DNA of 64,000 bases, taken from IMG/VR virus record IMGVR_UViG_3300042988_001938, one strand, 5' to 3'. Positions within the stretch are counted from its first letter, which is position 1. Each line of letters opens with the position of its first letter. The notes beneath the pieces were generated by a model that saw only the letters and a program-made list of their open reading frames with translations, was not told where the DNA came from and searched no databases. The position numbers were made by a program, and so were the translations under genes. The DNA comes from an uncultured virus (IMG/VR IMGVR_UViG_3300042988_001938). Lineage: Duplodnaviria > Heunggongvirae > Uroviricota > Caudoviricetes. Below, piece after piece: positions 1 to 18,449 of this stretch.

Positions 1-62
1 ATTCATAGTCTCTCTTTTTATTTGTTTACATCACTCTAACAACTGAAATTTCAAAAATCACA

Positions 63-183
63 AAAATTATAAATCTATTTGTTTTTTTATTATAAATTTA
101 GAAAATTGTGCAAACCCAGAGTTTAATGCAGGCTGGAGTCTACTCTTCCGACTGTATTTCAAAGCCAGGCCCCTTTTATATAG
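63..183 (-). ncRNA. putative small RNA cassette (family copy 1)
   Basis: No ORF between motif copies 184 and 34; core AGAGTAGACTCCAGCCTGC (128-146) shared with three other non-coding cassettes. Confidence 0.5.
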
Positions 184-307
184 CTCTAACAACTGGAATC
201 TCAAAAATCACAAAACCCCCAGTTGGTAGGCTGGGGGTCTCGCTGGACTAAACAAACAGGGCTAACCAGCCCACCTGCACGCAGCAGGTCTCGACAAACA
301 AACTTTT

Positions 308-499
308 TTATTTATTTTCAGTTACGCTTTTAATAGCGTCAATGTAATCTTTCTGCAACTTCTCTGCTCCTGCCTCATCTACCGTCTTCAACTTGGCAAT
401 AAGGTCATTTACACCACAACCCTTAACAGGAAGTGTTTTATTTTTGATGGCTTTCAGTTTTGTCTTGATAGCCTTCTCTAGGTCGTCTGCGTAACTCAT
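308..499 (-). CDS. hypothetical protein
   Basis: ATG at 499 (MSYADD...) directly after the stop of 501..680. Confidence 0.7.
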   Translation of the reverse strand: MSYADDLEKAIKTKLKAIKNKTLPVKGCGVNDLIAKLKTVDEAGAEKLQKDYIDAIKSVTENK

Positions 500-500
500 C

Positions 501-680
501 TTAGTTCTCTTCTTTAATTTCAACTGTCAAAATACCGTCTGTGTTAATATCTTTAGGCAACTCAACCTCTGTGTTGTAGACATTTGAAATTTGAAGTGCT
601 CGACCAATTTCAATCAGGCGTACCGCTAGTTGGTCTACTGACCCACTTCCTGAAATGTTTATGTTTAAGTTCTTTGCCAT
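501..680 (-). CDS. hypothetical protein (59 aa, not in ORF track)
   Basis: Hand-translated MAKNLNINISGSGSVDQLAVRL...; ATG 16 nt downstream of motif 697. Confidence 0.7.
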   Translation of the reverse strand: MAKNLNINISGSGSVDQLAVRLIEIGRALQISNVYNTEVELPKDINTDGILTVEIKEEN

Positions 681-729
681 TTTACTTTCTTTACTTATCT
701 AACAACCCGTTTCTCAAAAATCACAGAGT

Positions 730-984
730 TTATTTTGTTAACTTTTCAATCAACTCATTTGGAGTTCCTTTCCAAGTTTTTCCACCAATAGAAACTTCAA
801 TTTCGCAGTTTTCTCTTCTTTTATAAGATTCACCAAAACCCTCAAAAGCATCCACAGAAATGTAATCTTCATGTGAGTTGTTTTCAGAGCCGCCCACAAA
901 AGAAACAACTTGTCCTTTGTTTTCTTGGTAAGAAGGGCTTCCGCCTCTAACACCTGTAACTTTTAAGTTTATTTTTGCGCTCAT
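730..984 (-). CDS. hypothetical protein
   Basis: ATG (MSAKIN) downstream of motif 999; the track's longer start lies inside the motif. Confidence 0.75.
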   Translation of the reverse strand: MSAKINLKVTGVRGGSPSYQENKGQVVSFVGGSENNSHEDYISVDAFEGFGESYKRRENCEIEVSIGGKTWKGTPNELIEKLTK

Positions 985-1029
985 AAATTCGTTTTTAACT
1001 CTAACCACTCGTTTCTCAAAAATCACAAA

Positions 1030-1236
1030 TCAAATGTTTGACTGTGCAATAATTTCCTTTGCTTCATTGGTGAACTCATCATCACTCAAAGCCAATAGTC
1101 GGTCTTTCTCTTCTTCGTCAAACCAAACTGAAACAGCAACAACGTTGTCAGTTACAAGAGCAAGGTTAAATAATCCCTTTGCCATAAGGTTTCCTTCGTT
1201 AAGGCGAATATCGTTTACTTGTCTTAAAACATTCAT
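1030..1236 (-). CDS. hypothetical protein
   Basis: Fills the interval between motifs 1260 and 999. Confidence 0.75.
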   Translation of the reverse strand: MNVLRQVNDIRLNEGNLMAKGLFNLALVTDNVVAVSVWFDEEEKDRLLALSDDEFTNEAKEIIAQSNI

Positions 1237-1290
1237 GTCTATATCATTTGGTTACAAGACTCTAACAACTCGTTTCTCAAAAATCACAAA

Positions 1291-1758
1291 TTACTTATGA
1301 CTTTTTATATATTCCATTTTTTTAGCCAAGGCTTCTTTCATCATGTCCTCAGTGAACCAAGAAAACATTCTGCTGTCAATTACCATGTGAACGAATGTCT
1401 CCACATGAACAACAAAAAATGAACCAGCTGGCTTAACTTCAATTTTGTACTTGTGAGGAATTCCACCGCTACAACTCCAAGAACCATTTTCTTTAATAAA
1501 GCAAGAAATTGTTTCTAAGTTTTCATTGTAGTCAAGACTTTGAGTGTGGACGTGCCAAGCAAGGTCGTTCTTGCTAATTCTCTCCCATCTGTTCCAATTA
1601 CTTGTATGCTCCGAATAGAACCCGTTAAGGAGGTCTGTAACATATCGTGCAACGTCCTCAAGAGTTGGAAGTGTTATTGAACTTGTTCCCTCTTGCGCAG
1701 AAACATATGAAGTTCCCGTTGCGTGTAAATTGTTTGCTTCAAATTTTATTAGTTCCAT
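1291..1758 (-). CDS. hypothetical protein (leaderless)
   Basis: ATG 4 nt from motif 1763. Confidence 0.8.
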   Translation of the reverse strand: MELIKFEANNLHATGTSYVSAQEGTSSITLPTLEDVARYVTDLLNGFYSEHTSNWNRWERISKNDLAWHVHTQSLDYNENLETISCFIKENGSWSCSGGIPHKYKIEVKPAGSFFVVHVETFVHMVIDSRMFSWFTEDMMKEALAKKMEYIKSHK

Positions 1759-1847
1759 GTTACTCTAACAACTCAGTTCTCAAAAATCACAAAGGGAGAG
1801 AAAAACTTCCCTCCCCTTGCAACATGAAAACAAACAACAAACTTTAG

Positions 1848-1922
1848 TGGCACATCAGGGATTCGAACCCAATCAACCTATTATTTCAGTTGCGCCTTCA
1901 CTAGGGAAGCCAATCATGTGCC
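1848..1922 (-). ncRNA. tRNA-like element (degenerate tRNA)
   Basis: Acceptor stem GGCACAT/ATGTGCC plus A, T-arm GGGTTCGAATCCC; non-canonical D and anticodon arms. Confidence 0.55.
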
Positions 1923-1941
1923 GTTTTTTAAGCAGGGAGAA

Positions 1942-2172
1942 TTAACTCCACTGCTTCATTTTTTCTGTGAAGTATGTTACAACTTCGGGAATGTATTTTT
2001 TGTAGTAAGGCTGGTTGTCCATGCACCACTTCTTAACTTCATCTTTTGTCTTGAAGGGGTCAATGTGTGAGCGACCACTCATAATCATATCGAACGTAGG
2101 TTCAAGTTCCTCAATGAACGCCCCAACTGTCCAACCTTCCCAAATGTGCTTATTCAAATTTACGTTTGCCAT
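1942..2172 (-). CDS. hypothetical protein
   Basis: Downstream of motif 2192. Confidence 0.8.
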   Translation of the reverse strand: MANVNLNKHIWEGWTVGAFIEELEPTFDMIMSGRSHIDPFKTKDEVKKWCMDNQPYYKKYIPEVVTYFTEKMKQWS

Positions 2173-2224
2173 ATCTGTTTGTCTTATATTACTCTAACAA
2201 CTCATTTCTCAAAAATCACAAGAG

Positions 2225-2674
2225 TTACTTTAGCAACTCATGTTTTAAGCTTCCAATTCGCTTGTAGAACCCTGCTGTGTGTTTTGAGTCATTAAGTCCA
2301 AGCAACTTGTAGTCGAAGTGGTGACAAAGCTCATGTAGGAGCGTATCCAGTGTTGTCTTGTTCGCTACCACCTTTCCAGTCTTAGCTGTGTGCTTGTAAA
2401 GTGTAATAGTGCTTCCAAGCGCTCTGTAAGTTCCATAAATCTTTGAGGCAAGCGTACCTTTGGAGTTTGTACTGTGCGGCTGCTTTCCACCGTATGAAAT
2501 CGAGCAAACTGGAACTGCGAGGTCCTTGCAAATTGCGTCTGCAATAGACTTTAGTTCACCAACCGTCAAGCTGTCTGCGTTGAAAAACTTTTGGAACTGT
2601 GCTCTTGTTCCTGTCTTAATTTTATTAAGTTTTGGAAGTGTCTCAATGCTGTTTGAAATTTCGTAAGTTGTCAT
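2225..2674 (-). CDS. SprT-like / zincin metallopeptidase-domain protein
   Basis: TLLHELCHH (HExxH) followed by H-x-x-x-F near the C-terminus. Confidence 0.7.
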   Translation of the reverse strand: MTTYEISNSIETLPKLNKIKTGTRAQFQKFFNADSLTVGELKSIADAICKDLAVPVCSISYGGKQPHSTNSKGTLASKIYGTYRALGSTITLYKHTAKTGKVVANKTTLDTLLHELCHHFDYKLLGLNDSKHTAGFYKRIGSLKHELLK

Positions 2675-2724
2675 GTTGCTTGTTTTGTTTGTTTACAACA
2701 CTCTAACAACTCAATTCTCAAAAA

Positions 2725-2931
2725 TCACAAGTACTTTTTACCAAATTCTACAATTTTTTCATTTGGCAAACAAGAATATTTAATATGAATTGGAATTGAA
2801 ACTTTCAGTGCTTTTAGAATCTCTTCTTTTTCTGCTTCATCAGTCTCCTCTTCAAGTTTTTGAATTAAATTAAGTGTTACCTCTTTTAAGAGACCTAAAT
2901 CAATTGTACTGAATAAATTTTCTAAAGTCAT
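2725..2931 (-). CDS. hypothetical protein
   Basis: Stop TGA lies in motif 2701. Confidence 0.75.
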   Translation of the reverse strand: MTLENLFSTIDLGLLKEVTLNLIQKLEEETDEAEKEEILKALKVSIPIHIKYSCLPNEKIVEFGKKYL

Positions 2932-2986
2932 ATTGAGTGTTTATATAAGTCTAACAACTGGAATCTCAATAATCACAATGATGCCA

Positions 2987-3253
2987 CTATTTAATAATGG
3001 CATCAATCTTTTCTTTCTCACTGAAGTTCTTGATGTATTTATCATAGAATTCGGAGTTTGTTGCCTTTTGCTTCTCTGTTGGCTTTAAATAGAATTTTCT
3101 AAAAGACTCAAATCCAGCAATTGAAATACCTATAAATCCAAGTCTTTCATTTACATGAAATGTTAATTCAATTTTACCGTATTTTCTAAAATCAGACTGT
3201 GAAACTGCGCCAGTTGAAACGGTGTTATCTGTTGTAAATCCTGAAATATTCAT
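2987..3253 (-). CDS. hypothetical protein
   Basis: Between motifs 3277 and 2949. Confidence 0.75.
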   Translation of the reverse strand: MNISGFTTDNTVSTGAVSQSDFRKYGKIELTFHVNERLGFIGISIAGFESFRKFYLKPTEKQKATNSEFYDKYIKNFSEKEKIDAIIK

Positions 3254-3300
3254 TATCTTGTTGTTTGGTTACGACACTCTAACAACTCGATTTTCAAAAA

Positions 3301-3597
3301 TCACAGTTTAATTCCTGTAATTACAATTCGCTTATCACTAATATAAGAATACTCAAATAAATCTTTAAACATTTGTTCTTGGTCATCAAAAGGAAAACAC
3401 TCATCCCAATTAACATCAAGAACTGGTTTATCCCCCTCCATTGTCAATCGCATCATACCCTGACCACTTGTTCTTGAGTCTGCTCCAAAAAGCCAAAATG
3501 CTTTGTATTTTTGGTTTGTGAGAATGAATACAATAATTGTCTGCAATTCCATTGCTTTAAGACTTTGAGCTTTTTTCTTTAAATATTGAATGTTCAT
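3301..3597 (-). CDS. hypothetical protein (leaderless)
   Basis: ATG 4 nt from motif 3602; stop in motif 3277. Confidence 0.8.
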   Translation of the reverse strand: MNIQYLKKKAQSLKAMELQTIIVFILTNQKYKAFWLFGADSRTSGQGMMRLTMEGDKPVLDVNWDECFPFDDQEQMFKDLFEYSYISDKRIVITGIKL

Positions 3598-3625
3598 ATC
3601 ACTCTAACAATTAAGTTTTCAAAAA

Positions 3626-3835
3626 TCACAATTTCTCCACCAGCTTAAGTGTGTTTTCATTGACAAGACAAGGCAATGAAAATTTTCCTTCTCCACGGTC
3701 AATAAGTACAATAGCTTCTCCATTTTCGAATTTGCTAAGAATTCCTTTGATTAGAACTCCATTGTGAATACCACAGCACCCAATTGCGCTTACTTGGTGT
3801 CCAATCATTTTATTCACTTCATCAAGAAATACCAT
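3626..3835 (-). CDS. hypothetical protein
   Basis: Stop in motif 3602. Confidence 0.75.
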   Translation of the reverse strand: MVFLDEVNKMIGHQVSAIGCCGIHNGVLIKGILSKFENGEAIVLIDRGEGKFSLPCLVNENTLKLVEKL

Positions 3836-3886
3836 GTTCGTTTTGTTTGCTATAACACTCTAACAACCTAAATCTCAAAAATCACA

Positions 3887-3990
3887 GATTGGCTTGAGGA
3901 GTCCTTTAAAAAAAAATAAGGAGCAGGTTGGAGTCTACCCTCCGCAACAAACAAAGTTGTTGAGCCTGTCTCGGTCTCCCACCGACATAA
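3887..3990 (-). ncRNA. putative small RNA cassette (family copy 2)
   Basis: Motif-flanked, no ORF, hairpins, core AGGGTAGACTCCAACCTGC (3923-3941) then T-tract. Confidence 0.55.
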
Positions 3991-4025
3991 CTCTAACAAC
4001 TCAAATCTCAAAAATCACAACCTTC

Positions 4026-4388
4026 CTACTGAATAGTTATAAAGTACCCACCTCCCAAATATTTCTGTCTAACTTCTTTGTGGTCTCTTCTAAATACTTC
4101 ACGAGCAGCCATTTTGTTTTTTGCCTGAACGGTGCAAGTCCAAAAAACCTCTCTACTTCGGTTGACAATTTTAATGACAAAACTTTTTTCTCCTGATTTT
4201 TTTATTTGGCTTGAGTAGGCTTGTGTGTTAATTGCCGCTCGTTCCTCAGCTCGTTCTCTCAGGTAATGAGCTTTTTCTTCTTCGCTCAAAATAGTACCAT
4301 CCAATGTCAGCCTGTCTCTCTCTTCGGGTGTTAAACCCTCCCAGAAATCCATTTGCTCCATTGAGCCATATTCGTCATTAATATCCAT
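4026..4388 (-). CDS. hypothetical protein
   Basis: Downstream of motif 4412. Confidence 0.8.
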   Translation of the reverse strand: MDINDEYGSMEQMDFWEGLTPEERDRLTLDGTILSEEEKAHYLRERAEERAAINTQAYSSQIKKSGEKSFVIKIVNRSREVFWTCTVQAKNKMAAREVFRRDHKEVRQKYLGGGYFITIQ

Positions 4389-4435
4389 GATAAGCCTTTA
4401 TATTTACAACACTCTAACAACCCAAATCTCAAAAA

Positions 4436-4750
4436 TCACCAACGACCACGCTTTCCGCCCTTGTTTTTTCTTCCCATGAACTTGGAGAACGGGTGGTAAC
4501 TCTCAATCTCTCTCTTGGTAGGAATGTATTCAGTCTCAAATTTTGGAGGCGCAGTTAATAGAATTGTCTCCATTGAAAGTTGTCTTTGTTGCATAATTTC
4601 TTCGTGTTCATTAATATTTTCAAGTGTTGTAATTAAAATACCACCTTTCATGCTTGCTTCTAAACTTGCATTTTCTGCTATTAGTCTCCTAGTAGCTTCC
4701 ATACAAAAACCCATACCAACTACTATAACATTAATTTTCTGCTTTTTCAT
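4436..4750 (-). CDS. hypothetical protein
   Basis: ATG (MKKQKI) after the stop of 4753..4896; stop in motif 4412. Confidence 0.7.
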   Translation of the reverse strand: MKKQKINVIVVGMGFCMEATRRLIAENASLEASMKGGILITTLENINEHEEIMQQRQLSMETILLTAPPKFETEYIPTKREIESYHPFSKFMGRKNKGGKRGRW

Positions 4751-4752
4751 AA

Positions 4753-4896
4753 CTAGAGTTGAACTGTTGTTGAACATTCGAATCGTGTGCCATCCTCATT
4801 GTATAGCCACTGGGTAAGGAGTGTTCCCTTATTTTGTTCTGCAGCAACTTTTTTTGCTTCATCACTCAATTGCTGGTATTTGTATGCTGTTCTCAT
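4753..4896 (-). CDS. small hypothetical protein (47 aa, leaderless)
   Basis: MRTAYKYQQLSDEAKKVA...; ATG 4 nt from motif 4901. Confidence 0.65.
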   Translation of the reverse strand: MRTAYKYQQLSDEAKKVAAEQNKGTLLTQWLYNEDGTRFECSTTVQL

Positions 4897-4924
4897 AATG
4901 TTCTAACAACTAATTTCTCAAAAA

Positions 4925-6025
4925 TCACACATAGTACTCAACATCTTCGCTGTGGGTAATAGAATGTACAATTCTTACAATTCTATAAAATCCCTCACCA
5001 GAACATCTCTCCTTAAAAATTTCTTTTCCGTTTCTTAGTTCGCAAATTTCATAAGGAAGTGTGTTTGGCTTATTCAGTTGAGTTTTATAAATTTTCTTAA
5101 CTAAATACTTGCAATAATCACCACTTCTTAGTCGTCTAATATTGCAATAAGCATTTCCTCTTGAGTAGTACAATTCATGTCTTGCATAACTAAACTGCAA
5201 GACAACCAAGTTATCATCCCCCTCTTGTAATTCACTCGCATCTACTTTTTGAAAATAAACATGACAGCGTTTTTCATAATCCCAAACACAAATGTTATCT
5301 TTATTTTTAACAAAACCTTTTTCATCTATGCAGTCGCTAGGAACTCTATAAGGCATTCCATGTTGTAGCCATCTCCAAGAAGAAAGTTTTTCATCTCGGT
5401 AAACAAGACCATCAATAATTTGAATCGGTGTATGCTTGTATGGGTATTTTGTTGCAAAGTCAAGAGTTCCCTCCTCAGACTTAAATTCACACTCCCAAAA
5501 TTGAACTGTATTTACTTCAAAGTCTTTACCTAGAACATTGAATATTTTTTGTGCTAAATCAGAATCATTCAAAATCACATGGCTTCCAGTATCTTTTGCA
5601 ACCCAGTCAAAACCTCTGTAAACATAAAAGTTTCCAGTAGTAGAATTTGCTTCCCAACCACCAAGAGTTAGCGTGTTATCAGCGGAAGCGTGTCCAGACC
5701 CATCAAGTCTAAAAGACAAATGTGTAATAAATTTAGCTCTACCTCTGTTTTCAACTTTTCCAAAAAAGTCTTGAAACTCCTTAGGTAACTCCTTAACTTT
5801 TAGTATCGCTGGACCTCGGTCTTTACCTGTAAATCTATCAATTCCACAGTCCCAATCGTGAACATGGCAGTTATAATGAATAATGTCTGCGCAATAAACA
5901 TGAACTCCATCAATCTTATCGTATCGACTATTCTCATAGACAGCATAAATAGACTCAATTCGTTTGCCGTTGAACTTCGGCAATTCATCATATTTTATTA
6001 ATGTCTTTTCGTTTCCTAGTGCCAT
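4925..6025 (-). CDS. hypothetical protein (366 aa, largest in the array)
   Basis: Long ORF; stop in motif 4901. Confidence 0.85.
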   Translation of the reverse strand: MALGNEKTLIKYDELPKFNGKRIESIYAVYENSRYDKIDGVHVYCADIIHYNCHVHDWDCGIDRFTGKDRGPAILKVKELPKEFQDFFGKVENRGRAKFITHLSFRLDGSGHASADNTLTLGGWEANSTTGNFYVYRGFDWVAKDTGSHVILNDSDLAQKIFNVLGKDFEVNTVQFWECEFKSEEGTLDFATKYPYKHTPIQIIDGLVYRDEKLSSWRWLQHGMPYRVPSDCIDEKGFVKNKDNICVWDYEKRCHVYFQKVDASELQEGDDNLVVLQFSYARHELYYSRGNAYCNIRRLRSGDYCKYLVKKIYKTQLNKPNTLPYEICELRNGKEIFKERCSGEGFYRIVRIVHSITHSEDVEYYV

Positions 6026-6135
6026 AATGTCTATGTTTTTTAATCTAACAACTCAATTCTCAAAAATCACAAAATCAAAAAGGGGAAGCATTTACTCCCC
6101 CGATTTGGTAACAAACAAACAACAAACTAAAATCT

Positions 6136-6627
6136 TTATTCTTCGACTCCTTCGCCTAAGTATTCATTAATAATCTCGTACTGTGGCATTCCATCTAGGT
6201 CAAGCTCACTTTCTCTTTCTTCAAGAAGAACCATTTCACCAGTACATTGAATCTTGACAAACTTTTCATAAGCTTTCTCTTTATCTTCAAAGTATTCATA
6301 TACAATATATCCGTTCTTACCATGTGTTCCAACTCGGAAATTTGGTGTAATCCCATCAATAACGGAGTCAATCGCAATGCAAAGGTCTTCTAATTTTAGA
6401 GAATCAAAGCTATATTCATATCCTGAATTGTCAAACAATCCATCTTCTGAAATCTCAACAAGCCAACCATTTGAGCCTAAGTTAAACATAGCTTCATCAT
6501 CGTGAATCATAATCACAAGACGACTATTTGTGAATCTACTCTGAACCCCTTTTGTTTCAAGAAGTGTTTCAATAGTATCTTTAACCTTTTGGTTAAATGT
6601 TTCAAGTTTTGCTCCTAATTTTTCCAT
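6136..6627 (-). CDS. hypothetical acidic protein (leaderless)
   Basis: ATG 4 nt from motif 6632; hairpin terminator at about 6075-6103. Confidence 0.8.
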   Translation of the reverse strand: MEKLGAKLETFNQKVKDTIETLLETKGVQSRFTNSRLVIMIHDDEAMFNLGSNGWLVEISEDGLFDNSGYEYSFDSLKLEDLCIAIDSVIDGITPNFRVGTHGKNGYIVYEYFEDKEKAYEKFVKIQCTGEMVLLEERESELDLDGMPQYEIINEYLGEGVEE

Positions 6628-6655
6628 GACTCTCTAACAATTGGTTTCTCAAAAA

Positions 6656-6835
6656 TCACATAGAGTATTTTTTCAACTTCTTGAAGGACTTGGTGTGTCT
6701 TCCTTTCTTCACGTCATCTTGCGAGAAGAAGAAACAACCTTTTTCCTTGGTTGATAGAATTGCTTCCATCTTTGTCGGACGTGCTCTTAGGAAATCCCCT
6801 TTGCTGTTGAATACGTATGTCTTTTGATTTTTCAT
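6656..6835 (-). CDS. small basic hypothetical protein (59 aa, leaderless)
   Basis: MKNQKTYVFNSKGDFLRAR...; ATG 4 nt from motif 6840, stop in motif 6632. Confidence 0.7.
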   Translation of the reverse strand: MKNQKTYVFNSKGDFLRARPTKMEAILSTKEKGCFFFSQDDVKKGRHTKSFKKLKKYSM

Positions 6836-6856
6836 ACTACTCTAACAACTCATTTC

Positions 6857-7207: not shown

Positions 7208-7235
7208 GACTCTCTAACAATTGACTTCTCAAAAA

Positions 7236-7754: not shown

Positions 7755-7794
7755 TTAGTCCGACCATCTAACAACTCATCTCTCAAAAATCACA

Positions 7795-7820: not shown

Positions 7821-7832
7821 TGCTATAGGTTT

Positions 7833-10341: not shown

Positions 10342-10349
10342 ATTTTCTC

Positions 10350-11277: not shown

Positions 11278-11291
11278 GAGACTCTAACAAC

Positions 11292-11600: not shown

Positions 11601-11628
11601 ACCTCTCTAACAACCAAAATCTCAAAAA

Positions 11629-11970
11629 TCACAAGTACTTAACTTTGTCTTGCAATTTATTTAAGTAATAAGGGGTATTTAATTCTCTTGCATCTGAAAG
11701 GTGTACTTCATACTCTTCATCTGTTACAAAATAGTCACCACTCTCAGGCTCTAAGTCATCTTGAAGGCTATTTTCATTCCAATCCTCCATTTCCTCTCTT
11801 TGCGTTCCAGCGACCTCTGCAACAGTCCCACCAACTGAACTTACCCAGAATAAAAACTTTCCATGTGAGAACAAGTAGTGAATAGTGTTTTCAGCATCTT
11901 CAAATACATTTTTTTTGAAGAAACGAAACTGTTCCTTATCGTTAATGTCGAAACTCAACTTATTTTCCAT
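11629..11970 (-). CDS. hypothetical acidic protein (leaderless)
   Basis: ATG 4 nt from motif 11975; stop in motif 11605. Confidence 0.8.
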   Translation of the reverse strand: MENKLSFDINDKEQFRFFKKNVFEDAENTIHYLFSHGKFLFWVSSVGGTVAEVAGTQREEMEDWNENSLQDDLEPESGDYFVTDEEYEVHLSDARELNTPYYLNKLQDKVKYL

Positions 11971-12159
11971 GGAACTCTAACAACCAGAATCTCAAAAATC
12001 ACAACTTCGTTGTTCGTGCCGAAGCAAATCAAAAAGAGGGATACTCCTGTATCCCTCAATCTGGTAACGTAAAACAACAAACAAAAATCTTTATTCTTCT
12101 GGGTGCCTGTCTGGCTTCAGAACCAGCATCTCATCTTCAGGTCATCCCTTGTATCCTAG

Positions 12160-12233
12160 TACTCCCATCAGGATTCGAACCTGAGACCTACTGCTTAGAA
12201 GGCAGTTGCTCTATCCAGCTGAGCTATGGGAGC
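12160..12233 (-). tRNA. tRNA-Arg(UCU)
   Basis: GCTCCCA/TGGGAGT acceptor, D-arm AGCTCAGCTGGATAGAGC, ACTGC-CTTCTAA-GCAGT anticodon arm, GGTTCGAATCC; no encoded CCA; motif 12242 lies 8 nt upstream. Confidence 0.95.
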
Positions 12234-12265
12234 TTATATATTTCTAACAACTGATTTCTCAAAAA

Positions 12266-12529
12266 TCACACTTTCACCAAGTAACAAGAGAAATCAATGT
12301 CATTTTCTGCAGAAGTCTTAGCCATTGATTTTTCTACATCGTATCCAAACGAGGTAATTAACGACTTGAATTTTTCAAACTGAGTCTTCGTAAGAAACAC
12401 AACTGCATTGTGAAAAATGCCATCTGTACGACCACCCATTGTGTCACCTCGCATGGCGGAGAACAAAAACAAAGCATTGTTCTTTAATCCCACCTTGATA
12501 ATTTCCTGTTTATTTGCTGAATTCTTCAT
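12266..12529 (-). CDS. hypothetical protein (leaderless)
   Basis: ATG 4 nt from motif 12534; stop in motif 12242. Confidence 0.8.
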   Translation of the reverse strand: MKNSANKQEIIKVGLKNNALFLFSAMRGDTMGGRTDGIFHNAVVFLTKTQFEKFKSLITSFGYDVEKSMAKTSAENDIDFSCYLVKV

Positions 12530-12557
12530 GATACTCTAACAACTGATTTTTCAAAAA

Positions 12558-12791
12558 TCACAAAGTCTTTCTTCTCAATTGGTAAACTCTCATTTTTAAA
12601 CTTGAGACTGCACCTTCAATAGTTGAGCCTTGACCATGACAATTTGAGAATTCTCCACCCAATAAAGTTGTGCTATAAAGACCTGTGAAAACATCACGAC
12701 TAAATGAAAACTTCATTGTTCCACCTCCAACTCCTAATAGGGGAGTGGAGTAAATTCCATTAGGGCTTTCGCAAGTAATAATAGTTTCCAT
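12558..12791 (-). CDS. hypothetical protein
   Basis: Stop in motif 12534. Confidence 0.75.
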   Translation of the reverse strand: METIITCESPNGIYSTPLLGVGGGTMKFSFSRDVFTGLYSTTLLGGEFSNCHGQGSTIEGAVSSLKMRVYQLRRKTL

Positions 12792-12837
12792 GTCTGTTTG
12801 TTTAATTACAACACTCTAACAACTCAGTTCTCAAAAA

Positions 12838-13053
12838 TCACAAGGGAGAATTGGCTGCATCAATTCCACGCTGGAACGCTGCATCTGAAAAACCTGACAA
12901 AGACTCGCAAAGTTCTGCAATGTCTTGCTCATAGTATCCAGCAAAGAAGCAAACGTCAACAATTCTTTCGAACAAGGGAGACCCCTCTGGATTCTGAATG
13001 GGGTAGTGCTTCTTAACCACCTCCGCAACTGATTCTTTATCAATGTGTGCCAT
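12838..13053 (-). CDS. hypothetical protein
   Basis: Stop in motif 12814. Confidence 0.7.
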   Translation of the reverse strand: MAHIDKESVAEVVKKHYPIQNPEGSPLFERIVDVCFFAGYYEQDIAELCESLSGFSDAAFQRGIDAANSPL

Positions 13054-13238
13054 ATCTTATTTTTAAAGAGGGGAAAGTCAAACCATCATCTGTATTCAAT
13101 CAAATCCAAGTGATGATGAGGTTCTTGGCAACCATTTTAATGACTTCCCCCATTACTCTAACAACCCAAATATCAAAAATCACAAGAAAGGGAGAGGCAA
13201 TGCCCCTCCCAAACTCTGTAAACAAACAACTAACTTCT

Positions 13239-13856
13239 TTAGTAGTTTTGCACTTGTCGTAATCTGTATTTATCTGTGTATCTACCTCCGTTGTAGGCAT
13301 CACAACAAACTCCGCAAGCGTGCTTTACTCTAGTAGCTTTTTTGTGGCGAGGCGTTTCCTTGCCGCAATTATCACAAATCAATGTGTATTTTGTAGTCTT
13401 TTTTTCTGTCGGCTCTCCACCTATCGGAACACATCTTTCTGCTATTGAAAGGACTTGTGTTGCAATATTCTTCCACTTATAACTATGGTCGCTAAATCCT
13501 CTTATCTCAAAGTCAATAGCGTGTGCAATCTCGTGTCGAATAGTGTTCTCAAATCTCCACGCCTTGTCTAAGTGTTGCTCAAGGTACCAAGTAGAAACAT
13601 AAATGGTTTTCTTTCTTCCAGAGCAAAGTCCAAGAGCCGTTTTTCTTGTATTAAACTCAAAGTGCCATCCAAGGTCAATTAAGTTAAACTCCTTGCGTGT
13701 GAAACTGTTAATGTCAATCGTCCAAGTTGAATTCAGCAATTGAATTGCCAACTGCTTTATCTCCTCCTTTGTTGTGCTTTGCTCTCTATTGAAGAATAAC
13801 TTTTTTGTCAAGTCCTCGAATAGTGCATCGAATTTTGGGTCTTTGATAAGTTTCAT
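13239..13856 (-). CDS. SprT-family zinc metalloprotease-domain protein
   Basis: R..LGLC, HEIAHA, H...WK, C-terminal CxxC...CxxC. Confidence 0.85.
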   Translation of the reverse strand: MKLIKDPKFDALFEDLTKKLFFNREQSTTKEEIKQLAIQLLNSTWTIDINSFTRKEFNLIDLGWHFEFNTRKTALGLCSGRKKTIYVSTWYLEQHLDKAWRFENTIRHEIAHAIDFEIRGFSDHSYKWKNIATQVLSIAERCVPIGGEPTEKKTTKYTLICDNCGKETPRHKKATRVKHACGVCCDAYNGGRYTDKYRLRQVQNY

Positions 13857-13905
13857 GTCGTGTTGTTTATCTGTTACAATACTCTAACAACTGATTTCTC
13901 AAAAA

Positions 13906-14100
13906 TCACAACTCCCAATTATGTGCTTCGCAAATTACAATTGCATCTTCAATCTTGTACGTTTCATCGTAGTGCTTCAAGTTTGTTACCCACATTCTTG
14001 CACTCACCTTACCGAAGTACTTGTCAAAAAACTCTCTCTTTTCAACTGAAAGGTTATCTAAAATATCTTGCTCTTTCTTTGTTAAATTTGGCTTGTCCAT
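13906..14100 (-). CDS. hypothetical protein
   Basis: ATG (MDKPNL) downstream of motif 14125; stop in motif 13882. Confidence 0.7.
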   Translation of the reverse strand: MDKPNLTKKEQDILDNLSVEKREFFDKYFGKVSARMWVTNLKHYDETYKIEDAIVICEAHNWEL

Positions 14101-14148
14101 GTTGTTTGCTGTTTCGTTACAACACTCTAACAACCCAAATCTCAAAAA

Positions 14149-14424
14149 TCACAAGTCATTCAATGACTTTCTTATCACAAAGTAACCATGCTTGAATGGT
14201 TGAGTTCCAGTGTCGCATGGAATTGATATATCAACAAAGTCAAAACCATCCTCCGTGTCATGTACTGAAAAAACTTGGTAATTTTCTTCGTCATCTTGAT
14301 ACTCCCTAACCTCGTCAAGTCTTTCGGGGTGCAAGAAAACGAAATCTCCATATTTCTCAGAAGAACCCTCTCGTGCCTTAATAACTCTGTCTCCGTACTT
14401 TGAGAAAAATTCTTCTTTGGTCAT
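14149..14424 (-). CDS. hypothetical protein (leaderless)
   Basis: ATG 4 nt from motif 14429; stop in motif 14125. Confidence 0.8.
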   Translation of the reverse strand: MTKEEFFSKYGDRVIKAREGSSEKYGDFVFLHPERLDEVREYQDDEENYQVFSVHDTEDGFDFVDISIPCDTGTQPFKHGYFVIRKSLNDL

Positions 14425-14452
14425 ATCACTCTAACAACTGACTTATCAAAAA

Positions 14453-14917
14453 TCACAACTCAACATCCACAGAGCACTCAAGCCAAATCGGTTCATCCTC
14501 ACCTCTTGCGCCAATAATGTTAAAGTATGCGTATTCTTGCGCTCCTTCATAGTCCCAATTATTCTGAGCCATCAAAATTTCAATAAGTTTCTCGACTGAG
14601 TAAATCAAGCGCATAGAATGGTAATCAAAGCCCATAACCGCTTCATCAAAGCCCTCTTGCTTTCCTATTAAGTCATTGCCAAGGTTCGCTTCAAGAAACT
14701 CCATTCGGCTCGGTCCTTTATAGGTGTTTTCTTTTTCCGCTTCCTTCAATGACTCATTGATAATTCCCTTTACCAATATGTCATTGGCGAAGAATAAGGC
14801 AATACAAACCACCATCAATGGTGCTCCAATGGCTACATTCCCGAACGCCAATAGAATTACGGCAATTGGAAGTAGTACGACTAAGGGGTAGAAAATTGCA
14901 ATGTGAATTTTTTTCAT
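14453..14917 (-). CDS. membrane protein with conserved phage domain
   Basis: Two N-terminal hydrophobic helices; GFDEAVMG...IYSVEK...A.EY..FNI.GA domain related to 43843..44364. Confidence 0.75.
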   Translation of the reverse strand: MKKIHIAIFYPLVVLLPIAVILLAFGNVAIGAPLMVVCIALFFANDILVKGIINESLKEAEKENTYKGPSRMEFLEANLGNDLIGKQEGFDEAVMGFDYHSMRLIYSVEKLIEILMAQNNWDYEGAQEYAYFNIIGARGEDEPIWLECSVDVEL

Positions 14918-14966
14918 GACTGTTTGTTTATCTGTTACATTACTCTAACAACTCATTTCTCAAAAA

Positions 14967-15302
14967 TCACACAATCTCGCTTAATTCTTTTTCTAAATCC
15001 TCTCTCGTAATCCCATACTCCAAGCAAGCAATTTCTTTAAACAACTCCAATTTTTCCTGACCAACACGAATCGCATCATTAATGGTTGGAAATATATCAG
15101 AAGCCAAAATATCTTTTTTATCTTCTAATTCCCCAGTGTGCCAGCCACCAGCGTCATTAACAAACACATACCGACCTACAGCAAGTTCCTTCTTCATGAA
15201 CTCAATACCACTATCGAGAACATTAACCCTTACGTTTTCAAGTTCTTGAATGCTTGATATAATCATCCAATAAACTCCGTTGTAAAATCCAAATAGTTTC
15301 AT
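14967..15302 (-). CDS. hypothetical protein
   Basis: Stop in motif 14943. Confidence 0.8.
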   Translation of the reverse strand: MKLFGFYNGVYWMIISSIQELENVRVNVLDSGIEFMKKELAVGRYVFVNDAGGWHTGELEDKKDILASDIFPTINDAIRVGQEKLELFKEIACLEYGITREDLEKELSEIV

Positions 15303-15360
15303 GTTGTGTTCGTCTTATATCTGTTACACCACTCTAACAACCCAAATCTCAAAAATCACA

Positions 15361-15465
15361 AGAGCATCTTGAGGGAGACCCTAAAAAAAATAAAGAGCAG
15401 GCTGGAGTCCACCCTATGCGCTTTCCGAAGAATGCGAACCCGTATCGCTTGTGGCACCTACACCA
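15361..15465 (-). ncRNA. putative small RNA cassette (family copy 3)
   Basis: Motif-flanked; GTAGGTGC..AGCGATACGGGTTC..AGGGTGGACTCCAGCCTGC..T-tract. Confidence 0.6.
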
Positions 15466-15489
15466 CTCTAACAACCCAATTCTCAAAAA

Positions 15490-15699
15490 TCACAGGTTTG
15501 TTTCCTTCCAATCCTGGTACTCACAGAAAATAACCAGAACACCCTTGCTTGGCTTTTTCTTCTGGAACTCCTCATGTTCCTCCTCGCTCATCGAAATAAC
15601 TGCTTCAATAGTGCTAACAACTTTCGCATCCATGTGAGAGCCAATCTTTACAATATTGCTTCTCTCTAGTTCCTTTATAAATTCAATTGTCTTGCTCAT
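15490..15699 (-). CDS. hypothetical protein (leaderless)
   Basis: ATG 4 nt from motif 15704; stop in motif 15466. Confidence 0.75.
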   Translation of the reverse strand: MSKTIEFIKELERSNIVKIGSHMDAKVVSTIEAVISMSEEEHEEFQKKKPSKGVLVIFCEYQDWKETNL

Positions 15700-15732
15700 G
15701 ATACTCTAACAACCCAATTCTCAAAAATCACA

Positions 15733-15761
15733 AAAAAGGCTTCACAACCGTGAAGCCTTTC
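15733..15761 (-). terminator. intrinsic terminator
   Basis: AAAGGCTTCAC-GGTT-GTGAAGCCTTTTTTT running into the motif. Confidence 0.75.
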
Positions 15762-15815
15762 AATTTTTCCGAAATATCTATTAATCTTATTTGAGTTTAA
15801 TGTTTTCCTCGCCCG

Positions 15816-16049
15816 TTAAGTAAAGCCCACAGGGTACTCCTTAGCGTTTGAGAATGCCCCATTGGGCTTGCGTGCGTTCAACTCAACAAAGACCTCAAGA
15901 CCTACAGCGAAATCGCCTACCTCTTCATCAATCGCCATAACCGCCTGAGAGGTCGAAGCCACCACCTGAACATCAGGCTTCTGCTTCTCGAACTTCTCTG
16001 CTTGATGGCTTGAGAACAAGAGGGTTAATATGAGTGTCGTTATTATCAT
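15816..16049 (-). CDS. hypothetical secreted protein
   Basis: N-terminal signal-peptide-like segment; downstream of motif 16057. Confidence 0.65.
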   Translation of the reverse strand: MIITTLILTLLFSSHQAEKFEKQKPDVQVVASTSQAVMAIDEEVGDFAVGLEVFVELNARKPNGAFSNAKEYPVGFT

Positions 16050-16089
16050 TCTGTTACTCTAACAATTGGTTTCTCAAAAATCACAAGAC

Positions 16090-16302
16090 TTAGGCGTTTA
16101 ATATTTTATCTGCCATTCTTCCAATTCTTCTTAACTCCTCAAGAGCATGAGAATTCAAAGTGCTAACTGAAATTAAATCAACCTCCTGAATACCTTGAAG
16201 CGTGTTTACAATTTCGTTCTTTGTATCAAAAATCATCGCTTCTTTCTCATCAGTGAATATTTTTCCATTCACTTCAAATGCGTTTATTTTATTTACTGCC
16301 AT
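16090..16302 (-). CDS. hypothetical protein
   Basis: Downstream of motif 16323. Confidence 0.75.
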   Translation of the reverse strand: MAVNKINAFEVNGKIFTDEKEAMIFDTKNEIVNTLQGIQEVDLISVSTLNSHALEELRRIGRMADKILNA

Positions 16303-16365
16303 GTCGTTTGTTGTTTATATCTTTCTAACAATTGGTTTCTCAAAAATCACAAGATATTGAAGGTT

Positions 16366-16686
16366 TCACCCCTCAACTCTTGAATTAATTACACTTATCA
16401 AAACGTCCACGTAAATCCCTTCCATCTTGTCAACAATCTTTCCTTTCGCTGTCGTGAAGTATAGGGTGAATGTATCATCCCAACCAAGAGCAATATAAAC
16501 GTGTCCGTAGTGCTTTCTTCCTTGAACCATGAAGCGTGCAAACAAGTCCTTGTGAACCGCAAAGGCATGAGCGCCCCAGCAAGCCATTGTCCAAAATGCA
16601 CCCTTTCTCATGGCTGTTAATAACTCCTTTGGGTCGAAACTTCTTTGCCCAATTTTGTCTGTCTCAATTGTTTCTCCAATATTCAT
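16366..16686 (-). CDS. hypothetical protein
   Basis: ATG (MNIGET) downstream of motif 16711. Confidence 0.8.
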   Translation of the reverse strand: MNIGETIETDKIGQRSFDPKELLTAMRKGAFWTMACWGAHAFAVHKDLFARFMVQGRKHYGHVYIALGWDDTFTLYFTTAKGKIVDKMEGIYVDVLISVINSRVEG

Positions 16687-16750
16687 GTTGCTTGTTGTTT
16701 GGTTACAACACTCTAACAACCCAAATCTCAAAAATCACAAAGGGAGACTT

Positions 16751-17050
16751 TTAATTTAAGTTAATATCCCCTAGCAATTCATCAACCGCCTTTTGAGCCT
16801 GCATATCCTCCACAATCTCTTCAAGTTTGTGAGTGCTCTCAATATTTAATGAGAACGCTCCAATAGACTTATCTACCCAATGAATGTGGACTTTAAGACC
16901 AATGATGTATGGTTGCTCGTTTTCAGGTCGAATAACGGCTAAAAACTCTGTTGTTCCCTTAACTTGCTGACCAATGTTTGCGAAAGGGAGAAGCTCCTGC
17001 AAAGCTTGAACTACCAAGTCCAATTCTTCTTTACCATTCAAAAATTCCAT
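16751..17050 (-). CDS. hypothetical protein (leaderless)
   Basis: ATG 4 nt from motif 17055. Confidence 0.8.
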   Translation of the reverse strand: MEFLNGKEELDLVVQALQELLPFANIGQQVKGTTEFLAVIRPENEQPYIIGLKVHIHWVDKSIGAFSLNIESTHKLEEIVEDMQAQKAVDELLGDINLN

Positions 17051-17145
17051 ATTATTCTAACAACCCACTTCTCAAAAATCACAACTTCTATTTTTTTAGA
17101 AATAAAGGGAGAGTTCTGTGATTTTTGAAATTCCAGTTGTTAGAG

Positions 17146-17230
17146 TATTGTAGGTGCGAGAGCGATACGGGTTCAGGGAGAGATTTCTGCAGAGGGTAGA
17201 CTCCGACCTACCTTATATTTTTTTTGGGGA
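17146..17230 (+). ncRNA. putative small RNA cassette (family copy 4, inverted)
   Basis: After inverted motif 17117; GTAGGTGC..AGCGATACGGGTTC..AGGGTAGACTCCGACCTAC..T-tract. Confidence 0.6.
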
Positions 17231-17503
17231 GAGTTTCTAAACTTATAAAAATTCGTTTTTCCGCCCCCTTTTGAGGAGCGGTCAAGATTCAGTTTAACTT
17301 GGCTCTGCACACCCATGCAGTCAGTTAACACGTTTTCGGAGGGAGAGTTTCAGTCTCAGTAACCTTTCTTCATTGTCTTTCTCTTTTTGCTTATCTCTCT
17401 AACAACCCATTTCTCAAAAATCACAACTTCGTTATTCGTTCCGAAGCAAGGGAGGGAGAGATTCTTTTTAGATGGATGGGAGGGCTTAGCCCTCCCCAAT
17501 CTT

Positions 17504-18085
17504 TTAGTCAATGATTCGGTATTCAAACCCGCCAATCACAAACCCCTTCAAGTTGTCGAAGTCAACGGTACGGAAGCAGAAATCATTCTCGCTATCAACC
17601 GCCCCACGTCCACTTGTGTACTCTTTTGGGTTAAGTCCTGCAGGAGTGATGTAGTCAGCGTTCCAAACTTGCTCCTTGTTCACCTCTTGCATTGTTTCAG
17701 CAATGTAAAGTTTGTGGTCGCTTACTCTTGTGTGGTTCTCAACAATGAACACTAGGTAACGCTTTGTTTGTGTCTTTGTGTCACGTACCACAGGCGACCC
17801 GTCAATGTAGTACTCCTTGCCGAATTGTGGTTGAGCCACGAAGTTAATAACCTCACCTTGCTTGTTCTCAACAATTCGGTTTACTTTCTTCTCGTAGTCT
17901 GAACCAATCGTTGCGTTCAACTTTACGAATTTCTTAAGCAATTTCTTGCCTCCAACCGTTTTGCTTTCAGCAACATCTACCAAGTAAGAAAGGCTTGAAA
18001 ATGCTACTCCACTTGCTGAAATGTTCTTGTAGTCCTCGAACATTGCTACCGCTTGTGCTTTTGTAATGTGTTTTAAATTTTTCAT
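17504..18085 (-). CDS. hypothetical protein
   Basis: 193-aa ORF downstream of motif 18113; hairpin terminator at about 17476-17499. Confidence 0.85.
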   Translation of the reverse strand: MKNLKHITKAQAVAMFEDYKNISASGVAFSSLSYLVDVAESKTVGGKKLLKKFVKLNATIGSDYEKKVNRIVENKQGEVINFVAQPQFGKEYYIDGSPVVRDTKTQTKRYLVFIVENHTRVSDHKLYIAETMQEVNKEQVWNADYITPAGLNPKEYTSGRGAVDSENDFCFRTVDFDNLKGFVIGGFEYRIID

Positions 18086-18449
18086 GTCTATCGTTTTTTG
18101 TTTGTTACACTACTCTAACAACTGACTTCTCAAAAATCACAAGTTTTTAAGAAATTCTGAAAAAACTTTAAGTTTTTTCTTGTTATACTATTCTAACAAC
18201 TGACTTCTCAAAAATCACAAGACTTTCAAAAAGCTTTAAGCTTTTTTACGTAAGAAACGAAAAAATGTTACAAACAAAAGTTTATCGCAGGTCTGGATTA
18301 CCCTTGCGCTTTCTGTTTCACTAGCGGGCTTACACTACTCTAACAACCCAATTCTCAAAAATCACAAGATTTTTTTTTATTTATTTTTGACTAATGTTGT
18401 GATTTTTGAGATGATAATTGTTAGTATTATGTAACCAAACAACAAAACA

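Follow-up and report, generated by a model that had tools for sequence, protein, structure and literature searches.

What is the function of a short motif that stands in front of almost every gene in one region of a phage genome? This question is raised by a 64,000-nt stretch of DNA (hereafter, the window) from an uncultured virus of the Caudoviricetes (IMG/VR record IMGVR_UViG_3300042988_001938), whose first 18 kb are filled with copies of a 29-bp motif. The original prediction, made from the letters of the window, described this region as an array of one-gene cassettes in which each motif copy would act as promoter, as stop-codon donor and possibly as recombination site. We consider it reasonably probable that the motif constitutes an extracytoplasmic function (ECF)-type sigma promoter standing before nearly every gene, and that its copies double as homologies for the shuffling of cassettes. 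The promoter role is supported, at the level of sequence, by the anatomy of the motif and by the comparison with related phages.

Distribution and layout of the motif

We scanned the window for TGTGATTTTTGAGA-N5-GTTGTTAGAG and obtained 51 matches with at most three mismatches, 23 of which are perfect, and dinucleotide-preserving shuffles (n = 100) yielded none. Relaxing the search to five mismatches added no further copy, and none was found in the 18.4-64 kb part of the window, so that all 51 copies lie within 34-18426. This confirms the predicted array of about 51 copies and its abrupt end. The minus strand, which is the coding strand of the region, carries 49 of the copies, and the plus strand carries two (17117 and 18398). 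The orientation of the motif matches that of the product downstream, including at both divergent pairs, and the plus-strand copies head plus-strand products. Numbering the first base of the motif as 0 and the last as 28, we observed that positions 1-11, 13 and 20-27 are near-invariant across a pool of 202 copies from the window and four related contigs.

An interval between two consecutive minus-strand copies was counted as filled when an open reading frame (ORF) starts within 30 nt of its own motif and ends within 20 nt of the next motif or inside it. A single ORF fills 27 of the 48 intervals in this way, in agreement with the predicted one-ORF intervals with few spare bases. The stop codon is donated by the next motif in 18 of 48 ORFs (15 by the TGA of TGTGA, two by the TGA of TTTGAGA and one by the variable part). 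Stop donation was therefore found as proposed, but the claim that any ORF placed between two copies gains a stop is overstated, because one of the three frames finds no stop in the motif. This donation looks like a by-product of tight packing. The array probably continues past the first base of the window. Its leftmost gene, with the ATG at 4-6 behind the copy at 34-62, leaves the window after two codons, and the arrays of relatives extend over about 44-45 kb.

Arrays of the same motif were found in metagenome contigs of several assemblies, with at least 76 copies over about 45 kb, 52, 22 and 13 copies in the parts that we examined. The genes in common with these relatives present about 75% DNA identity. 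An exact scan of IMG/VR for the motif of the window gave no match. BLAST searches with the array and with the motif plus its leader returned only transfer RNA (tRNA) matches and chance hits among 50,697 phage records, and no relative among 72,556 plasmids. The literature on this class of motif, on Fluviicola phages and on Bacteroidota phage sigma factors yielded no description of such arrays.

Proposed promoter anatomy and predicted start site

We propose that GTGAT would lie at about -32 to -28 and, after fifteen bases, TGTTAGA at -12 to -6, with transcription starting at the purine 5 nt past the motif. The recognizing factor would be an ECF-type (group 4) member of the sigma-70 family. About one third of the mRNAs would be leaderless, with the A of the ATG as their first base, and in the remaining mRNAs, which would begin with RTAAC, an A/C-rich leader of 12-26 nt would precede the ATG. 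The predicted start coincides exactly with the one placed earlier, 5 nt past GTTAGAG.

The bases that follow the motif are consistent with this start. The fifth base past the motif (position 33) is a purine in all 202 pooled copies (background: 68%), and this holds without exception for the 165 copies in which the base does not belong to an ATG. Position 32 is never a G. The first ATG stands exactly 4 nt past the motif in 37 of the 202 copies, 17 of them in the window; almost none is found at 5-15 nt, and a broad hump follows at 16-30 nt. This gap in the spacing fits a start at position 33, with transcripts that are either leaderless or led by at least about 12 nt. With the start at this purine, 17 of the 49 minus-strand transcripts would be leaderless, a share that stands out when set against the 5.5% of leaderless mRNAs given for Flavobacterium psychrophilum in the available part of PMC9723704.

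Not all products of the array are proteins. One motif copy heads a tRNA-Arg(TCT) (Table 1), which was the only element found by Rfam over positions 1-20000, and at least three copies head a structured noncoding RNA (ncRNA). This ncRNA family of about 75 nt counts three paralogues in the window (17150-17225 on the plus strand, 15383-15461 and 3908-3986 on the minus strand) and five members in relatives, and it was also found in a chromosomal island described below (L206, 3870-3936). Its members, for which we found no Rfam match, form three hairpins, the last one being a terminator, with compensatory changes at 10 of the 19 pairs. The first base pair begins at motif position 33 in eight of eight members.

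Two ORF-less stretches headed by motif copies, 67-179 and 18220-18333 (both on the minus strand), constitute further ncRNA candidates. The first has a GTAGACTCC(R)RCCTGC module in common with the ncRNA family, and a distant IMG/VR relative has a look-alike of it (L209, near 1487), again behind a motif copy. We also observed a tRNA-like stretch (GGTTCGAATCC T-arm and paired ends) at 1826-1929 (minus strand), downstream of ORF 1942-2172. The related contig L022 conserves this stretch to 85%, and it was called by neither ARAGORN nor Rfam.

The array is enriched in terminator-like hairpins (29 found, relative to 12.0 ± 3.4 expected). A strong hairpin stands directly upstream of 11 of 50 motif copies, compared with 43 of 500 random sites, and in about ten of the hairpin-preceded copies the T-run of the motif is itself the terminator tail. 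Since terminators stand directly upstream, transcription must restart at the motif. The motif itself is not structured: five copies with their flanks reached 0 to -0.5 kcal/mol (z ≥ 0), no better than shuffles. A motif that does not fold is hard to reconcile with a hairpin promoter, with a recombination site that folds or with a hairpin for RNA processing.

These observations bear on the view that the motif acts in RNA, as a processing or translation signal splitting a long transcript into single-gene messages. Such a signal would fit direct repeats that stand between every gene, many of them without an intervening terminator, and the exact distance of the ATG in a third of the copies. However, the unstructured motif speaks against it, strong terminators in front of copies demand new initiation, plus-strand copies inside the minus-strand array head plus-strand RNAs, and sigma genes accompany the motif in relatives. 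We regard a role in RNA as extremely improbable.

Other classes of promoter were considered and dropped: a promoter of the N4 hairpin type because the motif does not fold, a promoter for a single-subunit polymerase of the T7 type because the distance between the conserved stretch and the inferred start downstream of it is too large, and a sigma-54 promoter because GG or GC boxes are lacking.

Sigma factors in related phages

The 106-aa protein encoded in the array (16366-16686) has relatives in IMG/VR records of 120-360 kb, which carry dense per-gene motifs of their own. In one of these lineages the motif reads TTGTAACTTTTTAAA-N6-TCGTTATAC, followed by RTAACCAA or by a leaderless ATG. The core of this motif is GTAAC-N15-CGTTATA, with RTAAC or the leaderless ATG 12 nt after the C. 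The core found in the window, GTGAT-N15-TGTTAGA, presents the same spacing, and its second box is also 12 nt from the inferred start. GTAAC-N15-CGTT is the layout of ECF-type sigma promoters. AAC and CGT are the consensus boxes of the Bacillus sigma-W and sigma-X promoters. In flavobacteria a CGT box is the mark of ECF promoters, as stated in the available part of PMC9723704.

The array of one IMG/VR relative comprises 74 copies, 71 of them on one strand, and is confined to 39.4-83.3 kb of a 142-kb record. The motif of this array (G405, the record behind locus L209) and of a sister record (G406, behind L210; 75 copies in 111.7-155.6 kb) takes the form GTAACTTTTT-N9-TCGTTATA, and nearly all copies lie on one strand. 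Both arrays have a sigma gene inside. The layout with one putative promoter per gene is thus a trait of a wider phage group.

Each of the five IMG/VR relatives that we searched encodes one to three proteins with Sigma70_r2 above the Pfam cut-off. Two of these genes were found in the array stretches that we examined, and one between motif copies of the 44-kb array. Contigs that carry the motif of the window also encode an ECF-like sigma factor directly behind a motif copy: sigma region 4 was detected in such a position in contig L116 (37.4 bits), and sigma region 2 was detected in contig L136 (45.3 bits) and in cut ORFs of L094 and L097. The sigma factor that reads the motif is probably encoded by the phage, inside the array and behind its own promoter, which would create a positive feedback. 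The leader of the leftmost gene in the window (copy 34-62) resembles the leader of the sigma gene in relatives, and equally that of another gene.

Several points weigh against an ECF-type promoter. Sigma factors and tyrosine recombinases were the genes that the original prediction proposed to look for; neither was found among the 119 window ORFs that we scanned, and the ECF-like sigma genes are those of relatives, on which the proposed sigma link rests. Protein searches of the window likewise recovered neither a polymerase nor a sigma factor of its own genome. Where ECF promoters usually have AAC and CGT, the boxes of the window read GAT and TGT, and the motif is found in chromosomal islands without a sigma gene nearby.

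The motif could instead be read by the sigma-A of the host. GATTTTTG would then be a variant of the Bacteroidota -7 box, transcription would start inside N5, and TTGTTAGAG would be transcribed or act as an operator, to which a regulator binds, or as a leader element held at 4 nt from the ATG. GATTTTTG fits five of the six fixed positions of TAnnTTTG, a box placed at -12 to -5 in F. psychrophilum in the available part of PMC9723704. Host-type boxes outside the array lie 21-36 nt before the ATG, and in the leaderless class this distance is 30 nt. In addition, a lytic phage normally depends on the host enzyme for its early genes, and islands without an adjoining sigma gene carry the motif. However, all 202 copies have a G in place of the first T of the box, the sequence upstream of GATTTTTG is not conserved, and these copies present no -33 element, which in Bacteroidota sigma-A promoters is a TTTG. 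Recognition by sigma-A also leaves the purine at position 33, the gap in the ATG distances and the starts of the ncRNA helices unexplained, and other lineages keep the geometry with GTAAC as first box, which is not a -7 box. Moreover, the motif is nearly absent from host genomes, being carried by only five of the 401 sampled genomes of the order Flavobacteriales. We therefore consider sigma-A an unlikely reader of the motif.

Scanning for the sigma-70 consensus yielded 36 sites, relative to 42.7 ± 5.7 in shuffles, and the motif is not among them; only four TAnnTTTG boxes were found on the coding strand of the array. Host ECF sigma factors present at most 40% identity to the phage sigma fragment, and none of them adjoins an island.

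Probable cassette shuffling between relatives

We further compared the array with parts of four related contigs. A homologue was found there for 15 of the 46 array proteins, in a different order, and the true share may be higher since the compared parts are incomplete and biased to motif-rich stretches. The order of the same cassettes differs between the window, a 4.7-kb contig and an activated-sludge contig (Table 1). BLAST blocks of at least 150 nt have 43 free ends, of which 31 fall within 20 nt of a motif, compared with 19% of random points. The segment 16352-17104 of the window, which comprises exactly two cassettes, is absent from two relatives, and motif copies stand at both of its bounds. 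Finally, two contigs present an identical gene and an identical motif, variable part included, followed by different genes, which sets this junction at the 3' edge of the motif. Because the shared proteins stand in a changed order and most block ends lie near a motif, these comparisons support the shuffling of cassettes, and the gain, loss and reordering of cassettes at motif copies that had been predicted are supported by order, block ends and indel.

The copies, which are near-identical, in direct orientation and about 50 to more than 70 in number, may act as short homologies. Recombination between them would delete, duplicate, insert or reorder whole promoter-leader-gene units, and the mechanism that we favour from these comparisons is homologous exchange between direct repeats. 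For the promoter-early stem-loop (PeSL) repeats of T4-type phages, recombination, including the formation of mini-circles, is shown experimentally in the available part of PMC2839356. The region would represent a pool of cassettes for proteins without known function, plausibly host take-over or anti-defence genes.

Alternatively, the motif may be a promoter only, and the differences in content and order may come from illegitimate recombination followed by selection, or from assembly errors. Breakpoints at motifs are also breakpoints at gene boundaries: the motif fills almost all of the intergenic space, so that intergenic breakpoints fall there, and selection for intact genes could give the same pattern. 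The relatives are short-read metagenome contigs of about 75% identity, in which repeats can cause false joins, and Logan contigs break at every copy. These points tell against a role of the motif in shuffling. Nevertheless, the motif is the sole sequence common to unrelated neighbours and nearly all of its copies are direct repeats. Three independent assemblies present three orders of the same three cassettes, and at one junction different genes follow an upstream gene and a motif that are identical down to the variable part. The promoter repeats of T4-type phages, in addition, recombine in experiments (PMC2839356, available part). A promoter without any role in shuffling thus seems rather unlikely to us, and we retain exchange between direct repeats as the preferred mechanism.

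We also looked at joints in four DNA runs (Logan contigs) and rejected them. All of them stand at motif copies, their shorter side measures about 30 letters, and they represent repeat mapping artefacts; they say nothing on circles or deletions, because the 29-bp repeat breaks the contig ends.

One metagenome contig of 4,708 bp (L013/L014) has ends that overlap by 15 nt, both within the homologue of gene 501-680, and its first 100 nt are the end of a 46.6-kb array contig (L116) of the same assembly. A repeated cassette, a strain variant or a circle could each account for this closure.

The motif in chromosomal islands

Scanning 185,579 species genomes for the motif, we obtained 50 loci, most of which represent chance matches; about ten present the full motif, in which the three bases before the scan pattern also match. 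The metagenome-assembled genomes with the full motif are labelled Fluviicola (three), Flavobacterium (two), Bacteroidota (one) and Akkermansia (one), the last being probably mis-binned. Three of these genomes contain four contigs on which the motif forms clusters of 4-5 copies in front of small genes, and here too the ATG often stands 4 nt past the motif. These islands (L203, G001:C8 100-120 kb; L204, G001:C9 44-64 kb; L205, G002:C235; L206, G003:C28) are surrounded by ordinary chromosomal genes such as mutS, topoisomerase, ctaA and acetyl-CoA synthetase. Their neighbours include a large serine recombinase, a small resolvase-type recombinase, type I and MmeI-type restriction systems and a Schlafen-like protein.

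The islands and the phage arrays have at least four protein cassettes and the ncRNA in common, with identities of 56-62% for a SprT-like protease and 48-61% for the 106-aa family. We found no sigma factor close to that of the phage near the islands. Either a host factor reads the motif or the islands are silent without the phage. It is possible, though on the whole doubtful, that the cassettes form a gene pool common to virulent jumbo-type phages and to Flavobacteriales islands wired to the phage sigma factor. If only this factor reads the motif, the islands would remain silent until infection, when recombinase and cargo would switch on. If true, this would represent a satellite or defence island that senses infection through the sigma factor of the invader. 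Since islands equipped with recombinases and defence genes carry this same putative promoter, traffic between phage and island, or signalling, seems plausible.

The islands also bear on whether the motif is the target of a dedicated site-specific recombinase of the integron, shufflon or resolvase type. Two invariant arms flank a variable part of 5-6 nt, and in two islands the gene of the small serine recombinase stands directly behind a motif copy (L204, 12097; L206, 8061), with the large one nearby. However, the arms are not inverted, i.e., they are not reverse complements of each other in direct reading, and the five folded copies form no hairpin. Neither Phage_integrase nor any other recombinase family was found among the 119 window ORFs, and neither the window nor the compared phage contigs contain a homologue of those found in the islands. 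The fixed ATG spacing, the ncRNA starts and the sigma genes, moreover, point to transcription. A recombinase target is very improbable in our view, and the suggestion that the motif is a tyrosine-recombinase site, which lacks inverted arms, hairpin and recombinase alike, is not upheld.

Genome setting and feature list

Beyond the array, the window encodes several functions that characterize large phages, among them a thymidylate synthase, a deoxynucleoside monophosphate kinase, NAD salvage enzymes, a CCA-adding enzyme and an HD-plus-kinase RNA-repair protein. Others of its proteins belong to families that characterize Bacteroidota, namely those with a type IX secretion sorting domain, DUF4494, DUF6794 and PcfJ. 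One array gene has a protein cluster in which a 137-kb contig is recorded. Given these functions, these families and this contig, the window is likely part of a large Bacteroidota phage, with a host in the order Flavobacteriales. The phage is probably lytic. Baseplate and tail-tube matches are weak, and no capsid or terminase gene was found in the window. Its DNA is present in freshwater metagenomes of several studies, and tblastn with four window proteins yielded only distant phage matches.

Pfam, PHROGs and NCBIfam assigned the array proteins to nothing beyond a SprT-like protease and a few families without known function. The 106-aa family has a confident predicted fold (predicted local distance difference test score of 91), which presents no match in the PDB at E 0.001 and no hint of DNA binding. 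The 632-aa and 381-aa proteins matched nothing in PDB sequence searches or in the Atlas. Outside the array, the gene at 24961-25302 (plus strand) specifies a small protein that carries a C-terminal sorting domain of type IX secretion. An RNA-repair and NAD module spans 34473-43848 and comprises the HD-plus-kinase protein, a cyclic-phosphate-processing receiver domain, the CCA-adding enzyme, an NAD synthetase, a nicotinate phosphoribosyltransferase and a NUDIX protein.

Genes outside the array present other upstream elements. Host-type TAnnTTTG boxes stand 21-36 nt before the ATG of several genes in 24.3-62.6 kb, for instance upstream of 32156-32500, 32592-33164, 39772-40197, 41994-42440, 47050-47919 and 62148-62603; 11 of the 75 non-array genes have such a box within 80 nt. 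The sequence CTATTTATAR occurs in six copies (33923, 36629, 45384, 51114, 51634 and 61286), relative to 0.59 expected. Five of them lie 3-22 nt before the start of a gene outside the array, and this sequence may represent another promoter class, such as a late one. Since host-type boxes precede non-array genes, the genome seems to use at least three classes of promoters.

Table 1. Motif copies, their products and cassette orders. The strand is that of the motif copy or element; leaderless ORFs have their ATG at the predicted transcription start; cassettes are named by their first coordinate.
Feature	Position	Strand	Remarks
Putative promoter-plus-gene cassette array	1-18426	-	predicted leftward transcription; cut by window start; ends at putative divergent promoter pair 18338-18426
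Motif, 1 mismatch	34-62	-	leadered gene, ATG 4-6, runs off window
Motif, perfect	184-212	-	terminator hairpin directly upstream; heads ORF-less 67-179 (ncRNA candidate, GTAGACTCC module)
Motif	697-725	-	heads ORF 501-680 (59 aa), then ORF 308-499 (63 aa) without own motif
Motif	999-1027	-	heads ORF 730-984
Motif	1260-1288	-	heads ORF 1030-1236; cassette order differs in relatives
Motif	1763-1791	-	hairpin upstream; heads leaderless ORF 1291-1758
Motif	2192-2220	-	heads ORF 1942-2172 (shuffled cassette), then tRNA-like stretch 1826-1929
Motif	2701-2729	-	heads ORF 2225-2674
Motif, 2 mismatches	2949-2977	-	hairpin upstream; heads ORF 2725-2931
Motif	3277-3305	-	heads ORF 2987-3253
Motif	3602-3630	-	heads leaderless ORF 3301-3597
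Motif	3858-3886	-	heads ORF 3626-3835
Motif	3991-4019	-	heads ncRNA 3908-3986
Motif	4412-4440	-	heads ORF 4026-4388
Motif	4901-4929	-	heads leaderless ORF 4753-4896, then ORF 4436-4777
Motif	6043-6071	-	hairpin upstream; heads ORF 4925-6025 (366 aa)
Motif	6632-6660	-	heads leaderless ORF 6136-6627 (shuffled cassette)
Motif	6840-6868	-	heads leaderless ORF 6656-6835
Motif	7212-7240	-	heads leaderless ORF 6857-7207
Motif	7766-7794	-	hairpin upstream; heads ORF 7236-7754
Motif	8267-8295	-	hairpin upstream; heads ORF 7833-8246
Motif	9307-9335	-	heads leaderless ORF 8577-9302, then ORF 8344-8526
Motif	9674-9702	-	heads leaderless ORF 9331-9669
Motif	9944-9972	-	hairpin upstream; heads ORF 9704-9922
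Motif	10528-10556	-	heads leaderless ORF 10350-10523; about 380 nt of unassigned sequence downstream
Motif	10703-10731	-	heads leaderless ORF 10552-10698
Motif	10847-10875	-	then 115-nt interval with only a 16-codon ORF
Motif	11282-11310	-	heads leaderless ORF 10864-11277
Motif	11605-11633	-	heads leaderless ORF 11292-11600
Motif	11975-12003	-	heads leaderless ORF 11629-11970
Motif	12242-12270	-	heads tRNA-Arg(TCT) 12159-12233; tRNA 5' end 4 nt past predicted start
Motif	12534-12562	-	heads leaderless ORF 12266-12529
Motif	12814-12842	-	heads ORF 12558-12791
Motif	13156-13184	-	hairpin upstream; short ORFs, then ORF 12838-13053
Motif	13882-13910	-	heads ORF 13239-13856, SprT-like metalloprotease; cassette common to chromosomal island
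Motif	14125-14153	-	heads ORF 13906-14100
Motif	14429-14457	-	heads leaderless ORF 14149-14424
Motif	14943-14971	-	heads ORF 14453-14917
Motif	15332-15360	-	heads ORF 14967-15302
Motif	15466-15494	-	heads ncRNA 15383-15461
Motif	15704-15732	-	hairpin upstream; heads leaderless ORF 15490-15699
Motif	16057-16085	-	heads ORF 15816-16049
Motif	16323-16351	-	heads ORF 16090-16302; right-hand edge of two-cassette indel
Motif	16711-16739	-	heads ORF 16366-16686 (106 aa; alignment A1 family, also in islands and IMG/VR jumbo phage records)
Motif	17055-17083	-	heads leaderless ORF 16751-17050; left-hand edge of two-cassette indel
Motif	17117-17145	+	heads ncRNA 17150-17225 (+); divergent from copy at 17055
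Motif	17397-17425	-	then 313-nt interval
Motif	18113-18141	-	heads ORF 17504-18085 (193 aa), 83-91% conserved in two relatives
Motif	18191-18219	-	49 nt upstream of next copy (putative tandem promoters)
Motif	18338-18366	-	first minus-strand copy of array; then 118-nt ORF-less stretch (ncRNA candidate)
Motif, 3 mismatches	18398-18426	+	divergent; heads ORF 18450-18623 (+), conserved in relatives
Two whole cassettes	16352-17104	-	absent from two related contigs; indel bounded by motif copies
Cassette order, window			6136, 4436, 2225, 1942, 1030, 501
Cassette order, 4.7-kb contig			1942, 6136, 4436, 1030, 2225, 501
Cassette order, activated-sludge contig			1942, 1030, 6136

If this reading of the array is true, a family of large Bacteroidota phages would run 40-45 kb of accessory genes as single-gene units, every unit behind the same sigma-specific promoter and about a third of them without a leader. 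The promoter and its sigma factor would form a pair that should be orthogonal to those of the host, and the predicted anatomy would provide a simple rule to find the starts of about 50-75 unknown genes and small RNAs per genome.

Comparison with known systems

Small early genes clustered behind repeated strong promoters are found in the host take-over module of SPO1 and in the pre-early region of T5. The early promoters of these phages are read by the host sigma-A, and we know of no description of cassette shuffling at them. Phage-encoded sigma factors are exemplified by gp28 of SPO1 and gp55 of T4. In phiEco32 and 7-11, as described in the available part of PMC4331800, a phage sigma factor redirects the host core enzyme to conserved phage promoters and its own gene lies behind such a promoter, as proposed for the array. 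Those promoters, by that same account, are few, whereas the array has one per gene in tens of copies, and the array promoters head a variable accessory region and not middle or late core genes.

ECF-dependent promoters are characterized by boxes about 15-17 nt apart, by a -10 box of the CGT type and by a start about 6-8 nt past this box. As in ECF promoters, the motif presents two short boxes about 15-16 nt apart, and the predicted start lies about 12 nt further on when counted from the C or T of the second box. It differs from them in the letters of the boxes in the window (GTGAT and TGTTAGA) and in its 19 invariant positions, which make it longer than usual.

The original prediction also likened the region to an integron-like platform. 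The array does resemble integrons in being a one-orientation series of single-gene cassettes, mostly without known function and with high turnover. However, integrons possess an integrase, folded attC sites and a common Pc promoter, whereas in the array we found no integrase, an unfolded motif and a promoter for each cassette. No recombinase was found in the window or in the compared parts of relatives. The array is therefore not an integron, and the provision of each cassette with its own putative promoter is the opposite of the integron arrangement.

The closest precedent is provided by the PeSL cassettes of T4-type phages, and the idea is thus partly known already. According to the available parts of PMC2839356 and PMC4122927, PeSL promoter cassettes shuffle ORFans. 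In these accounts, as in the array, small genes without known function are flanked in hyperplastic regions by conserved promoter repeats, which also mark the ends of insertions, deletions and replacements between related phages, and some copies are joined to a terminator hairpin. The same accounts also reveal differences. PeSLs are host sigma-70-like promoters defined by their stem-loop, whereas the array motif is not sigma-70-like and only 11 of 50 copies have a hairpin, most having none. PeSLs are scattered over several regions of T4-type genomes, whereas the array copies are more uniform and denser (51 copies over 18 kb in the window and 74-76 over about 45 kb in relatives). The array is further distinguished by a third of its genes being leaderless, by a Bacteroidota host and by the occurrence of the same promoter in chromosomal islands. 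If our reading is true, the array would represent a second independent case, after PeSLs, of repeated promoters that serve as joints for gene shuffling.

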